Assembly (NCBI GenBank): GCA_963771465.1
Contig: CAVYTU010000017.1
Coordinates: 416,001-480,000 of the forward strand
Origin: an uncultured delta proteobacterium
Lineage (GTDB): Bacteria > Desulfobacterota > Binatia > UBA9968
Reading direction: 5' to 3'
Length of the DNA stretch: 64,000 nucleotides
The notes under the pieces were generated by a model. That model was not told the origin of the DNA. It saw only the letters and a program-made list of their open reading frames with translations, and ran no database searches. Every line of letters starts with the position of its first letter. Within the stretch, counting starts at the first letter, position 1. The translations under genes were made by a program, and so were the position numbers. Shown piece after piece: positions 56,822 to 64,000 of the stretch.

Positions 56822-58792
<1,971 letters not shown>

Positions 58793-58893
58793 AAATTTAG
58801 CATACAATTCGTATTCAAACTGGCCGCCTCGCGCGGCCAGTTTTGTTTCTAGCTCTCAGTTCATCTCTGGTGCGCGTAATTACTGATCGCTCC

Positions 58894-59400
58894 ATGCGCA
58901 TTCTGCTTTACGGTTTTGGCCCTTACCGCGAGTTCCGCGATAACATCACTGCGCGGATCATTAAATCATTACCGCGCCGTACCGGGGTCAAGAAATTAAT
59001 TTTTTCGGTGCGCTTTCAGCGCCGGCAATTTATCGACGCGCTCAATCGCTATCGGCCGGACGTCGTGCTTGGATTGGGGCAAAGTTCACGTAAACGAATC
59101 GAGGTTGAAAGCCGCGCGATCAATCGTCGCCGCGGGGGTCAATCGGAACGGGCGCGGCCGATTTTGAAAGACAAGCCCAAGTCCTTGCCAACATCGTTAC
59201 CGATTCATGCCGGCCGTTGGGCCGGGATCTCTATTAACGCCGGCGACTATGTCTGCAACTATTCGATGTTTGTCCTGTTAGAGGAGATTGACCGTCGGCA
59301 GTTGAGAACGCGCTTCGGCTTCGTTCATATTCCGCACGATTACGATCAGCGAAAGGCCATCGAGTACGTGCAGAGAATTCTCCAGCAGTGTCAACCTTGA
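58894..59400 (+). CDS. pcp: Pyroglutamyl-peptidase I (C15) family
   Basis: ILL.GFGP, PD.VLGLGQ, E..A.N, S.NAGDYVCN, GFVHIP. Confidence 0.85.
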   Translation: MRILLYGFGPYREFRDNITARIIKSLPRRTGVKKLIFSVRFQRRQFIDALNRYRPDVVLGLGQSSRKRIEVESRAINRRRGGQSERARPILKDKPKSLPTSLPIHAGRWAGISINAGDYVCNYSMFVLLEEIDRRQLRTRFGFVHIPHDYDQRKAIEYVQRILQQCQP

Positions 59401-59485
59401 TCTTTGGACTCGATCTAACCGAGCCATTTGGAACTTAACCGTTGATTTGTTAGTCTCGCGAAAATTCGGATCCACGAGAGCAAAC

Positions 59486-60076
<591 letters not shown>

Positions 60077-60144
60077 CCTTGACCACCAAGCATCGTCCAA
60101 AGCAAACGTGGCGCGCCGGCGCGTGGTTGTCGTCGCGGCGTTCG

Positions 60145-61014
60145 TCAGCTTGTCAACCGCCGTAACGCTTCGCTGTACTTATCCTGAGTTTTCTTGACGA
60201 TCTCCAGCGGTAATGCCGGCGGCGGCGATTTCATGTCCCAGGGTAGACTCAGCAGGTAATCGCGCACGAACTGCTTGTCGAAGCTGTCGGGTGACTTGCC
60301 GGGTTTGTAACTGTCCATCGGCCAGAAACGGGAAGAGTCGGGAGTCAGCACTTCGTCGATCAAGAGAATGTCATTGCCTTCCATGCCGAACTCAAATTTG
60401 GTGTCGGCGATGATGATGCCTTTCTTCTCGCCGAGTTCGCGGGCGCGTTGATAGATTGCCACGGTCGCGTCGCGCATTTTCGTGGCGAGAGTCTTGCCCA
60501 CTTTCCCGACCATTTGATCAAACGTGATGTTGACGTCGTGGGCGCCGACTGGGGCTTTGGTCGACGGGGTAAAAATTGGCTCGTCGAGTCGAGCCGCTTC
60601 GACCAACCCTTTTGGCAAGGATATGCCGCACAGCGATCCAGTCTGTTGATAATCTTTCCAGCCCGAGCCGGCGAGGTAGCCGCGCACGATACATTCCACC
60701 GGCGCCGGCGTGCTTTTCTTGACCAGCATGCTGCGCCCTTCCAGATTGGCTTTGTGCGGCTGACAGGCGCTGGGAAACTCTTCGACTCGGGTCGTGATCA
60801 AATGATTGGGAACGAGGTCTTTTATGATCGCGAACCAGAATTCGGACATCTGCGTTAGTATCTTTCCTTTGTCAGGAATGAGAGTCGGCAAGATGACGTC
60901 GAATGCGGAGATACGGTCGCTGGCAACGAGCAGGAGTTTGTCGTCCAAGTCATAGATGTCGCGAACCTTGCCGCGACTAAACAGTTTCAAACCTGAAAGC
61001 GTTTGATCAGCCAT
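60145..61014 (-). CDS. purC: Phosphoribosylaminoimidazole-succinocarboxamide synthase
   Basis: [60 protein letters not shown]. Confidence 0.98.
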
Positions 61015-61309
61015 GTGAGAACCTTTCCTAGCAGGTGGAATTAGATGATCGGTTGCCAGTGGAATTTGCGGTGGGCCCCGATGCGAAATCTATCCAGACC
61101 ATATCGATGATTCTGTGTCAATTGGCATCGATAGCGTTTCCCGATTTGCTCGTGAACCCAACTTATGGCGGTGGTTGAAAACTTATCGATATCGAGGTCG
61201 TTTTAGGGATATCGGTTTCGGGTGATTGAGATCCTCTAGACATACGTTCCCGCAGCGAAAAGCTTCGCTTCTTTCTGAAGACGCAGCGGTCAACGCGAAC
61301 GAATTCGCC

Positions 61310-61468
61310 TTAGAATTTATGTGTGGCCTTGCCGATCAGCGCGATTCCCGCAAGCAGCCCTATCGACGCGAACAGGGCCAGTCCAGGCGCTTCGCGAATT
61401 TGGTATAGACCAACGGCACCCAAGATGATGAGGCCCACTCCGGCGATCATATAAGTCGTCGTGTTCAT
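61310..61468 (-). CDS. Small two-helix membrane protein (52 aa)
   Basis: GGGAGG RBS, ATG 61468; MNTTTYMIAGVGLIILGAVGLYQIREAPGLALFASIGLLAGIALIGKATHKF has two hydrophobic segments. Confidence 0.7.
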   Translation of the reverse strand: MNTTTYMIAGVGLIILGAVGLYQIREAPGLALFASIGLLAGIALIGKATHKF

Positions 61469-61516
61469 GTCCAGTACCTCCCTTATTGACCAACGCCTTT
61501 GACTAGAGCTTGAGCC

Positions 61517-61558
61517 AAAAAAAAGACCGACCGGAAACCTAAATTTCCCGGGTCGGCC
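61517..61558 (-). terminator. Rho-independent terminator within a leader (attenuator candidate)
   Basis: Minus strand GGCCGACC-CG-GGAAAT-TTAG-GTTTCC-GGTCGGTC-T8. Confidence 0.8.
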
Positions 61559-61621
61559 CATTTCCCAACTGGTTGGATTGAATTTCAATCCGACCCTTCG
61601 GGAGATCGTCAGACTGCGCCA

Positions 61622-61650
61622 CTTATAGAAACGACGCGATGGATTGTCAA
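61622..61650 (-). promoter_or_regulatory. Putative sigma70 promoter overlapping the DUF2294 stop codon
   Basis: Minus strand TTGACA-17 nt-TATAAG. Confidence 0.65.
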
Positions 61651-62024
61651 GAGTCCCTTTTGCGCGCGAGGGTTTTCTCGAGGTTGTTTTCCAGGGCGAA
61701 GACAAAGACCCGTTCGCCGGATTCGGTGCTGATGTCGGTGTACAGATCGAGAATTTTCGTGCCGGTGATATCGCCAACGACCTGATACAAAAGCGGGCGC
61801 GCTTTGTCGATCAGAGTCGCGCGCATTTTTTTGACCAACTCTTTGCCGTCGATCGACTTTGTCAATTGTTCTTCCGCCGGGGTCAAAACACCTTTGAGAC
61901 GAACAACAACCAAATCTTCGACGATATGGACGCGCGTTTCTTTCGGGCCGCGGCCCATGTAGTCGATCTCGAATTGAACGATGGCGCAGCTAATTTCGGC
62001 TTCGATTTCGCCTTTGGTTTTCAT
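61647..62024 (-). CDS. DUF2294 (MpsC-like) protein
   Basis: MKTKGEIEAEIS.AI..FE..YMGRGP, RLKGVLTPAE..L, G..LVK.MR..L, TDIST.SGER..VF. Confidence 0.88.
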   Translation of the reverse strand: MKTKGEIEAEISCAIVQFEIDYMGRGPKETRVHIVEDLVVVRLKGVLTPAEEQLTKSIDGKELVKKMRATLIDKARPLLYQVVGDITGTKILDLYTDISTESGERVFVFALENNLEKTLARKRDS

Positions 62025-62064
62025 GGCCAAGCGGGAAATGAGCACACGCCGTGTGACGCCAGGA

Positions 62065-62418
62065 TCAATGCTGCAGAAGTTCTTTGACTTCAGCTTCGTT
62101 AAAGCCGGTTAGTTTCTTTCTCCCCTGGATGATCACGGGACGCCTTAATAGATTCGCGTCCTTGAGCATGAGCTTGATCGCCTCTTCTTTTGCCGGCGGC
62201 TTTTGCTTCATATTCTTTTCCCGATAGAGCGACGTGCGGGTGTTGAGAAACGACTCTATCGGGCTGTCGCCGATCAGCTCGCGCAACTCTTTTTCCGTAA
62301 ACGGATTCTTGCCGTACTCCCGTTCTTCAAGGTCGACTTTTTTTGATTGCAAGAAACTTCTTGCTTTACGGCAAGTCGTTCAGCTCGCTTTGTAGAAGAA
62401 ACGAATCTTGTCAGCCAT
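62065..62418 (-). CDS. ArsC/Spx-family selenoprotein (in-frame TGA 62382-62380 as Sec13; 117 aa)
   Basis: AGGAG RBS + ATG 62418: MADKIRFFYKAS-U-TTCRKARSFL..K.P.T..EL..LLRRPV...GFN; TGA sits at the first Cys of the family CxxC-RKA motif. Confidence 0.88.
62349..62382 (-). promoter_or_regulatory. Putative bacterial SECIS element
   Basis: TGA-15 nt-GCAAGA-AGTT-TCTTGC hairpin with apical GU at positions 26-27; a competing CTTGC/GCAAG pairing is also possible. Confidence 0.6.
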
Positions 62419-62475
62419 GGGAAAACTCCTAGAGTGTTGGAGTGGCGGGTTTTTGCCTAATGCTCCAATCCCTTC

Positions 62476-63858
62476 TTACTTGAAGTACTTCGCGACGCGT
62501 TCGAATGCAGCGGGTTCGACTTCGTTACGAACCGGCCATTCACTCTTCATTTTCAACGGGATCGTCGCATCGATGATCGCGACGGTGTCGCCGAGCCAGC
62601 CGCGGAAGCTCTGGACTTCGCGGATGATCTCGATGTCTTTGTCCCAGTGCACGCGGGTCGCCACGGCCCACATCACTTCGCGCTCGTTAAACACGTCGAT
62701 ATCTTCATCGACGATCACCGCGAGTTTCAAGTTCGGCATTTCGACGAACGCCTGCATGCCGGCTTTGTTGGGTTCGTTTTCGAATTCCTTCTTGATCGAA
62801 ATATAGCAGATGCAACGGCCGCAGCCCGAGGCCGCGAGATGGATGCCCGTGATGCCGGGAACATTCTTCTTGATGACGTTGTAAGTGCTGCCTTCTTTGG
62901 GAATGCTGCCGAGATTCCAATGATCCATATGGCCGGGCCAGAAGTCTTCGACGATACCGCCGCGCCGATGAGTAATCGCGGTGACTTCGATGACCGGCAC
63001 GTCCATTTTCGGTTGGGCGTAACCGAGAATCTCGCCGAAGGGGTTCTGCGATTGGCGCACGCCGGGGAGTATCTCGCCTTCAATGATAACTTCGGCATCG
63101 GCCGGTACCATGAATTTATCGCCCCAGGTTGTTGATGGTGTAAGCCGCAGCGGCTCTTTGAGGAACGCCGACGCGGTCAGGTAATCGTTGTTACCCATCG
63201 CCGTCATGGCGCAGGAAGAAAGATAAAACGCGGGGTGGTGGCCCAGGATGACGATCACAGGCGCGCGCAAATTTTTCTCCTCGTACTCGCAAGCCATCGC
63301 TTCCAAGTGATGATGCTTGTGCGCCGAGAAGCTCATATGTTTGGGATCGTGAAATTTATTTTTAGTGAACGTGATGTCGTAGAAGTCGGCGTTCAGGCCC
63401 TTCATGGCGCAGGTCATGGTATGGTATGGACCGGCGTCGCCTTGTTGGTGCATCGGCATCGGTAGAACGCGCAAATCGGCCTTGTCCCCCGTGAGCACGA
63501 CTTCTTTGACCGGCGCTTTTTCCGGCGCGATGACTTCGAGCTTGCCTTGCTGTTGTTCGAGCTTGGCGACTTCGAGGCTCACGTCCATGGGCGACTTGAT
63601 GTCGCCCATGTCGAGAGAGTCGGCGACGTACTGGCGCGACACCCACGGATTGTAGAACATCGGGAAATCGGATTTCTTGCCGTTTAGCGCCGGAACGTTT
63701 TCGAATAGCACCATCTTCGGTTCGTTGCGCATGTCGAGATGTTTGAGATAGGCAACGGTCTCGTAATTGTTCGCGTCGATGAAGTTTCTCTCACGGATCA
63801 CGGCGCCTTCGCGGGTGGCGCCTTCCTTGGCTATAAAACTAGGTAAATCTTTGGCCAT
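62476..63858 (-). CDS. UbiD-family (prFMN-dependent) decarboxylase
   Basis: DL..FI, VLFENV, APVKEV, DL..LP, D.GPY, VPADAEVIIEG, PFGE..GY, VIVDEDIDVFN..EVMWAVATR. Confidence 0.9.
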   Translation of the reverse strand: MAKDLPSFIAKEGATREGAVIRERNFIDANNYETVAYLKHLDMRNEPKMVLFENVPALNGKKSDFPMFYNPWVSRQYVADSLDMGDIKSPMDVSLEVAKLEQQQGKLEVIAPEKAPVKEVVLTGDKADLRVLPMPMHQQGDAGPYHTMTCAMKGLNADFYDITFTKNKFHDPKHMSFSAHKHHHLEAMACEYEEKNLRAPVIVILGHHPAFYLSSCAMTAMGNNDYLTASAFLKEPLRLTPSTTWGDKFMVPADAEVIIEGEILPGVRQSQNPFGEILGYAQPKMDVPVIEVTAITHRRGGIVEDFWPGHMDHWNLGSIPKEGSTYNVIKKNVPGITGIHLAASGCGRCICYISIKKEFENEPNKAGMQAFVEMPNLKLAVIVDEDIDVFNEREVMWAVATRVHWDKDIEIIREVQSFRGWLGDTVAIIDATIPLKMKSEWPVRNEVEPAAFERVAKYFK

Positions 63859-64000
63859 GAAGGGTCTCCTTTAAATCGCGATTAAAAAAATTTTATTCAC
63901 TCTTACTTAGTCGAATCACTAGATGAGTTCAAGGGAGTTAGCTCCTGATGAGGCCCGTGAGCGCGCGCCATTTGTGGCGCCAACCGGAGTGACAAAGCAA

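Follow-up and report, generated by a model that had tools for sequence, protein, structure and literature searches.

A conserved, terminator-containing leader RNA linked to DUF2294 (MpsC) genes in a soil Binatia lineage and in other phyla, and its possible role as a transcription attenuator

On the minus strand of the window (the whole stretch of 64,000 nucleotides analysed here), directly downstream of a DUF2294 (MpsC) gene, lies a real, conserved structured RNA with covariation and an intrinsic terminator, and this RNA is a member of a leader-RNA family that is widespread, uncatalogued and linked to DUF2294. We interpret the element with moderate confidence as a cis-acting transcription attenuator; the DUF2294 protein would be its most likely operator, and the signal is probably related to inorganic carbon.

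The DUF2294 gene (61647-62024, minus strand) encodes 125 residues from the ATG at 62024 and matches Pfam family PF10057 with an E-value of 6.3e-36, which agrees with the identity proposed for it in an earlier note on this DNA. Its TGA stop codon (61649-61647) falls within the hexamer TTGACA (61645-61650), which together with TATAAG (61622-61627), placed after a 17-nt spacer, makes up a predicted minus-strand promoter read from the sequence. Both hexamers named in that note are present and conserved, the -10 position being occupied in relatives by TATAAA, TAGCAT or TAAGGT. A simple feature scan listed the inner stem of the terminator and missed the promoter, because its rule requires T as the last base of the -10 hexamer. 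The predicted leader RNA of about 100 nt extends from 61616 to 61517, with a predicted start at about 61616-61614. It opens with a conserved 5' tail (CAGUCUGACGAU, 61605-61616, minus strand), the 5' strand of a proposed antiterminator helix that we call P0, and continues into the P1 rod hairpin (61560-61606, minus strand), whose tip is variable and which in the minimum free energy (MFE) fold is interrupted by a tandem A-G/A-G internal loop. The pairing of P1 consists of UCCCGA/UUGGGA, GGU/ACC and GGAUUGA/UCAAUCC, between 61603 and 61563, the tip comprising 7 bp. The intrinsic terminator (61517-61559, minus strand) is a two-tiered, G+C-rich stem (61559-61524) with a 9-bp outer stem (GGGCCGACC/GGUCGGUCU) and an inner stem, followed by a run of eight T (61524-61517), and its 5' arm (61559-61551) doubles as the 3' strand of P0.

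The first gene behind the leader in the window (61310-61468, minus strand, ATG at 61468) encodes a 52-aa protein with two hydrophobic segments and is preceded by a ribosome-binding site (AAGGGAGG, 61476-61483, minus strand), which is likewise read from the sequence and is kept in relatives. This small membrane-protein gene is real, as had been claimed: 26 homologous clusters share 69-98% identity with it, 25 of them being exactly 52 aa long. None of these clusters is named, and a Pfam search matched no family to the protein.

Other genes of the neighborhood can be described briefly. A beta-carbonic anhydrase gene (59447-60076, Pfam E-value 2.9e-52) is located on the plus strand, the opposite strand, where the earlier note had put it. 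Upstream of DUF2294, an ArsC/Spx-family gene (62065-62417, minus strand) carries an in-frame TGA at 62379-62381 and reads MADKIRFFYKAS-TGA-TTCRKA, the TGA occupying the expected site of the first cysteine of the redox motif. A hairpin (CUUGCCGUAAAGCAAG, 62375-62360) follows 4 nt past this TGA, and the mechanically called open reading frames (ORFs) of relatives likewise start just past the same point; judged by these features, the gene probably encodes a selenocysteine-containing ArsC-like protein. Upstream of purC (60145-61014), a block TTGACAC...GATATGGTCTGGATAGA at about 61090-61125 (minus strand), whose hexamer spacing is unlike that of a standard promoter, is kept in loci L014-L016.

The leader region is more stable than chance, with an MFE of -58.1 kcal/mol that 1 of 200 shuffled sequences equals (z = -3.05). 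Using an alignment of 14 sequences, we found that 87.7% of the cells pair, against 81.3% in shuffles (0 of 500 reaching the observed value), with both sides changed in 14 pairs. Among 46 copies aligned with MAFFT, P1 and the terminator pair in 92.0% of the cells (0 of 500 shuffles) and 13 pairs are changed on both sides, 10 of the 14 P1 pairs being among those changed, whereas controls in which the register was slid pair in only 19-48% of the cells. Over the family and other-phylum alignments taken together, the true register pairs in 70-92% of the cells, against the same 19-48% for the slid controls. The terminator helix is paired in 97.1% of the cells across the 46 sequences. Individual P1 pairs of this alignment illustrate the exchanges: pair 18-61 is GC in 24 copies, AU in 16 and GU in 6, pair 24-55 is UA in 27 and CG in 14, and pair 26-53 occurs as four pair types. 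In the tail, bases G7, G10 and A11 show no or almost no variation. All parts of the leader that had been described from the window alone, namely a length of about 100 nt, a nested hairpin and a T8 terminator ahead of the ribosome-binding site, are present.

The 5' tail can pair with the 5' arm of the terminator, forming P0, by which P1 is lengthened to a rod. In the window the P0 pairs are G3-C65, U4-A64, C5-G63, G7-C61 and C9-G59. In the family alignment (n = 46) pair 4-75 is UA in 43 of 46 copies, 7-72 is GC in 45 and 11-68 is AU in 43, while pair 5-74 alternates between UG (24) and CG (19). In one copy (L069:5161) the tail, the 5' arm and the 3' arm are all altered jointly (A3, U76, A102). 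P0 is nevertheless weak in the host family, U6 being mismatched with C73 and G10 with R69 in 44 of 46 copies each, which we count against an attenuator. Folding of the leader of the window with the terminator blocked gives the rod as the best structure, at -32.1 kcal/mol versus -42.7 kcal/mol for the terminator form; the terminator form being the more stable, termination is expected as the default. When transcripts ending short of the terminator's 3' arm were folded, pairing between tail and arm appeared in 36 of 46 sequences and in 631 of 920 with shuffled tails, and since shuffled tails pair almost as often, this folding-energy test adds no support for P0. The pairs of the window, the family counts and the other-phylum counts all place the 5' arm of the intrinsic terminator in the basal helix of the rod.

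In the attenuation mechanism that we propose, a sigma-70-type promoter overlapping the stop codon of DUF2294 would initiate the leader of about 100 nt, whose stronger terminator hairpin would form by default and end transcription before the ribosome-binding site of the 52-aa gene. Alternatively, the 5' tail and P1 could extend into the long irregular rod, the basal helix P0 of which takes the 5' arm of the terminator, and an effector stabilizing this rod would allow read-through. The most likely effector would be the DUF2294 protein encoded upstream, acting as a signal-dependent RNA-binding antiterminator.

Using BLAST and a protein search over 40 relatives, we found the element in 9 of the 24 genomes of the genus, always directly behind DUF2294; five of the genus copies precede the 52-aa gene, two precede a 34-aa single-segment gene located behind an additional conserved unit, and one carries a deletion. 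In locus L014 (genome G021) the region from the terminator loop through into the 34-aa gene is deleted. Covariance models (R1, then R2) were built from the host family, and revealed extra copies behind a DUF2294 paralog and ahead of a 283-aa ABC permease. The order-wide search matched 41 of 123 genomes, 40 of them among the 90 genomes of the host family, a tally that counts the window's own genome; the second family of the order gave 0 of 5 and the third a single weak match in 28, the unpublished genomes G093 and G005 being included in the order tallies. A phylum-wide sample of 150 other genomes, searched with stricter filters, returned only three weak matches (E > 1e-4), and because the stricter filters missed true copies in G080 and G087, which were recovered once the filters were off, this sample is no proof of absence. 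The sequencing runs that contain this stretch come from soil, rhizosphere and groundwater.

The layout of the copies is regular. Of the 50 copies listed, 36 begin about 31 nt past the stop codon of DUF2294, usually with the stop inside the -35 hexamer, which substantiates the proposed tie between the leader and its neighbor, and 45 have TTGAC[N] at a constant distance upstream. Tandem units occur in 15 of 47 arrays, the second unit lying 3-12 nt behind the first, a distance that leaves no space for a second promoter; the array in the window is a single unit. The second unit is a diverged hairpin plus terminator with the consensus CGGUAGGCC...GGCAGGCCAGCU...AGCUGGCCUUUUU, and was seen in L015, L016, L029-L032, L060, L063 (for example L063:1858-1952) and others. 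The nearest ORF of at least 100 aa is on the same strand in 39 of the 47 arrays, five more have a small same-strand ORF below this size cut, and in the remaining three there is a contig end or no ORF was called. A co-directional gene thus follows closely in every informative array, and the leader probably gates the genes that follow it.

The host-family genes found behind the element encode the membrane proteins of 52 aa and 32-34 aa, a Crp-like regulator, an ABC permease that resembles TauC/SsuC/NrtB with scores under the curated cut-offs and, in loci that have no DUF2294 upstream, TctC-like binding proteins. There is no explicit CO2 function among them, which we count against the inorganic-carbon reading. 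The 32-34-aa protein, which has a single segment, begins MGKWEP... and ends in a run of lysines, recurs in some genomes as the product of the first gene after the element (L015:1717 onward in the oriented sequence, L016, L026 and L065). A second type of DUF2294, 22-28% identical to the first (L018:2155-2508, L062:3525-3905, L058:4399-4782 and L069:397-819), has an element of its own upstream and TerC, HtpX-like or Tmemb_14 genes as neighbors. Placed in this way, the second type would itself be regulated by the RNA instead of standing ahead of it.

The DUF2294 gene of the window is the only one in its genome, and a Pfam search with the 132-aa ORF gave PF10057 only. An AlphaFold2 (AF2) model of the protein (pLDDT 92.3) shows the order helix-strand-strand-helix-helix-strand-strand. 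A search of the sequence against solved structures returned nothing at E-values up to 1, and the fold matches of the model were weak and mixed: H-NOX (Foldseek E-value 8e-3), FtsK (VIA Z 6.9, rmsd 3.4, 86 aligned residues), TRAPP/Bet3 (Z 5.9), V4R (Z 4.9) and YslB (Z 4.5). That H-NOX, V4R and Bet3 recur among the matches of this predicted structure hints at best at a fold that binds small molecules. The fold searches revealed no clear structural relative and no recognizable RNA-binding fold, which we count against the protein as effector. A study on Staphylococcus aureus reports that deletion of mpsC produced no phenotype, mpsC being dispensable for MpsAB activity, and that mpsA is down-regulated at 5% CO2 (PMC6689103). 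The dispensability of mpsC fits a non-structural, possibly regulatory role for MpsC.

In the 90 genomes of the host family DUF2294 is present in 42 and the RNA in 40, largely the same genomes; these are plain counts, since the genomes are related to one another. The exceptions fall on both sides. The RNA occurs apart from an intact DUF2294 in G003 (88% complete; loci L013/L021), where only the last 20 or so codons of DUF2294 are left and the element and small gene are kept, and no DUF2294 was found with it in G077 (99% complete, a weak copy of 31.8 bits), G066 (at a contig edge) and G005 (a weak copy), all of which we count against an attenuator operated by DUF2294. Conversely, DUF2294 lacks the RNA in G020 (L079), where a deletion starting at the 3' end of DUF2294 has removed the element and the start of the 52-aa gene, and by genome search also in G064 (contig end), G080, G087 and two genomes with weak DUF2294 matches.

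A search with the DUF2294 alignment returned 80 loci, of which 49 were from other phyla. Applied to these 49 loci, the host-family model R2 yielded 33 matches with E < 1e-3 (one locus contributing two) and a best score of 59.9 bits, in loci labelled Nitrospirota, Planctomycetia, Omnitrophota, Elusimicrobia, Firestonebacteria, KSB1 and others. A further two copies emerged with the filters off, raising the number to 35, and 32 of these 35 lie 6-175 nt past the stop codon of DUF2294, many with TTGAC-type hexamers between this stop and the element. In the 33 copies, 142 cells are changed on both sides compared with 60.6 in shuffles (0 of 500). Their P0 helix contains two invariant G-C pairs, followed by one pair that is UA in 11, CG in 10 and UG in 5 copies and another that is UA in 13, CG in 4 and UG in 3. 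Their internal loop is a 3x3 AAG/AAG loop flanked by G-C pairs, in which G10.A58 is found in 32 of 32 copies and A8.G60 and A9.A59 are common. The loop sequence is GGAAGAY/RUAAGCC in these copies versus UGACGAU/AUGGGCC or UGCAGAU/AUAGGCC in the host family; the first of these, UGACGAU/AUGGGCC, is that of the window, where G7, G10, A11, U12, U57, C61 and C62 are kept, A9 is replaced by C, and A58 and A59 by G. The two groups also differ in that a frequent diverged second unit was noted on the host-family side only, and in the genes that are gated, which in the host family are those of the small membrane protein, the ABC permease and the TctC-like proteins. In L149, from a metagenome-assembled genome labelled Nitrospirae, a single DUF2294 gene lies between two elements (785-871 and 1998-2086) and is followed by a NuoL-like gene.

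Among 26 proteins encoded downstream of the other-phylum copies, six are NuoL-like (MpsA/DabB-like), nine are PEPCK, two are SbtA, two are hexapeptide proteins closest to gamma-CA/CcmM, two are Usp, two are M48 peptidases, two are MpsC and one is of the DksA type. The gating of DabB/MpsA-like, SbtA, PEPCK and gamma-CA-like genes in other phyla points to an inorganic-carbon signal. The CO2/bicarbonate theme suggested by the earlier note is therefore in keeping with the genes of other phyla; the downstream genes of the host family carry no explicit CO2 label. More broadly, and only tentatively, DUF2294/MpsC might constitute a new family of signal-gated RNA-binding antiterminators and form, with the rod-terminator RNA, a switch spread over many phyla, which would turn on genes for inorganic-carbon uptake and carboxylation (DabAB/MpsAB-like, SbtA, PEPCK and gamma-CA-like; here the ABC permease and small membrane proteins) according to CO2/bicarbonate status.

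Searching Rfam 15 with positions 58000-64000 of the window at E-values up to 10, we obtained only SorY (E-value 0.91), which covers the terminator alone; eight host-family loci gave no relevant match at E-values up to 5, and ten other-phylum loci matched no family at E-values up to 1 except a tRNA. These results agree with the earlier note, which did not recognize the leader as a named riboswitch class, and the Na+ and Li+ ion riboswitches, like any other Rfam 15 family, are rejected as identities of the element by the lack of a covariance-model match. A literature search over sources other than subscription journals found no paper that describes the leader RNA or assigns DUF2294 a regulatory function.

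The element could instead be a true riboswitch, with the conserved internal loop of the rod as the direct binding site for an ion or small molecule (for example a bicarbonate-related one or Na+) and with DUF2294 merely co-located. Such an RNA would account for the strict conservation of the 3x3 loop and its G-C flanks, G10.A58 included, and the combination of tandem units with a basal helix overlapping the terminator is the architecture of ON riboswitches; the copies accompanied by a truncated DUF2294 (G003) or by none that was found (G077) also favor it. We nevertheless regard a riboswitch as unlikely, because DUF2294 almost always lies upstream of the promoter and outside the control of the RNA, unlike the predicted regulon of a riboswitch, and because few unpaired bases of the RNA are conserved, the molecule being a simple rod that matches no Rfam family, ion riboswitches included.

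Metatranscriptome contigs bear on whether the RNA could be an independent trans-acting small RNA, whose gene, with its own promoter and terminator, would lie between DUF2294 and the small gene. The data are contigs from four runs of four studies, which cover the region, carry no information on ends, strand or levels and may include carried-over DNA, and stretches without contig cover carry no meaning. Two contigs join the DUF2294 coding region to the element (61532-61722, which stops in the terminator, and 61608-61758). A third covers just 61498-61640, starting inside the promoter spacer, 24 nt upstream of the predicted start, with a depth of 13.4 versus 3.7-4.0 for its neighbors, although contig depth cannot rank regions. 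As contigs run in from upstream, some RNA, or contaminating DNA, enters the element from that side. A small RNA gene would be consistent with the short third contig, with the promoter-like hexamers kept at a fixed distance and with a strong terminator, which would release an RNA of about 100 nt. However, the tandem second units have no promoter space, a co-directional gene is always close behind, a fourth contig (61220-61553) bridges the terminator and the small ORF, and the conserved single strands have their pairing partners inside the same RNA, so that we consider this explanation improbable.

The antiterminator drawn by the earlier note was a different helix, in which GGGUCGG of the P1 5' arm (GGGTCGG, 61596-61590) pairs with CCGACCC of the terminator (61556-61550). 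The complementarity itself is confirmed, being perfect over 7 nt in the window, and 5-6 of its pairs remain in most class-1 relatives. Its conservation is not: substitutions at alignment columns 24, 26 and 27, in the 5' arm of P1, are compensated inside P1, through pairs 24-55 and 26-53, and are not followed by the terminator arm, whose CCGAC is invariant, while class-2 copies read GGGCUGCC, a clash of C with A against that arm. By sequence comparison, the GGGTCGG/CCGACCC antiterminator is present in the window and not conserved, and a switch built on it is improbable; the conserved alternative is P0. The least convincing explanation, which we think very improbable, takes the element as only the terminator of the DUF2294 mRNA with a stabilizing 3' hairpin and no regulatory role, as the contigs running from DUF2294 into the terminator and the lack of any other terminator for DUF2294 would allow, but which is at odds with a tail and loop sequence conserved across phyla, with conserved promoter hexamers and tandem units, and with copies that have no DUF2294 upstream and precede TctC-like genes and the second DUF2294 type.

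Little is known about CO2/bicarbonate sensing and the control of inorganic-carbon uptake in non-photosynthetic bacteria, and DUF2294/MpsC is a protein family to which no function is assigned. An RNA switch coupled to DUF2294 in Nitrospirota, Planctomycetota, Omnitrophota, Elusimicrobiota and this soil lineage would make both questions testable, and would add a new family of leader RNAs and possibly a new class of antiterminator proteins.

The DUF2294-operated attenuator that we favor has parallels among known systems. In the hut operon of Bacillus subtilis, the ligand-activated HutP protein binds the terminator RNA between hutP and hutH, prevents termination and so gates the downstream genes, and there too a small regulator gene is directly followed by a terminator-containing RNA. 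HutP recognizes spaced UAG triplets, whereas the element of the window is a paired rod with a single UAG in 61616-61517, which does not fit a HutP-type target, and a predicted promoter intervenes here between the regulator gene and the RNA. Proteins of the BglG/LicT/SacY/GlcT family stabilize an imperfect hairpin, the RAT, of about 30 nt, the base of which overlaps with a terminator's 5' arm. This overlap is shared by the element, although its rod is about 65 nt long, and the layout of L149 is reminiscent of bglG between two terminators. DUF2294 does not fit a regulator of the BglG/LicT family, as the CAT and PRD domains are absent and Pfam gives only PF10057; the fold matches listed for the DUF2294 model are weak and of kinds other than HutP or CAT domains, which speaks neither for nor against these folds. 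In transcriptional ON riboswitches, among them the adenine riboswitch of pbuE and the rod-shaped ion riboswitches of the DUF1646 (Na+) and nhaA-I (Li+) motifs, a basal helix competes with an intrinsic terminator. The element differs from these in being tied to a protein gene outside its control and in matching no Rfam 15 family, and it shares with them the competition between basal helix and terminator, the tandem arrangements and the gated transporters.
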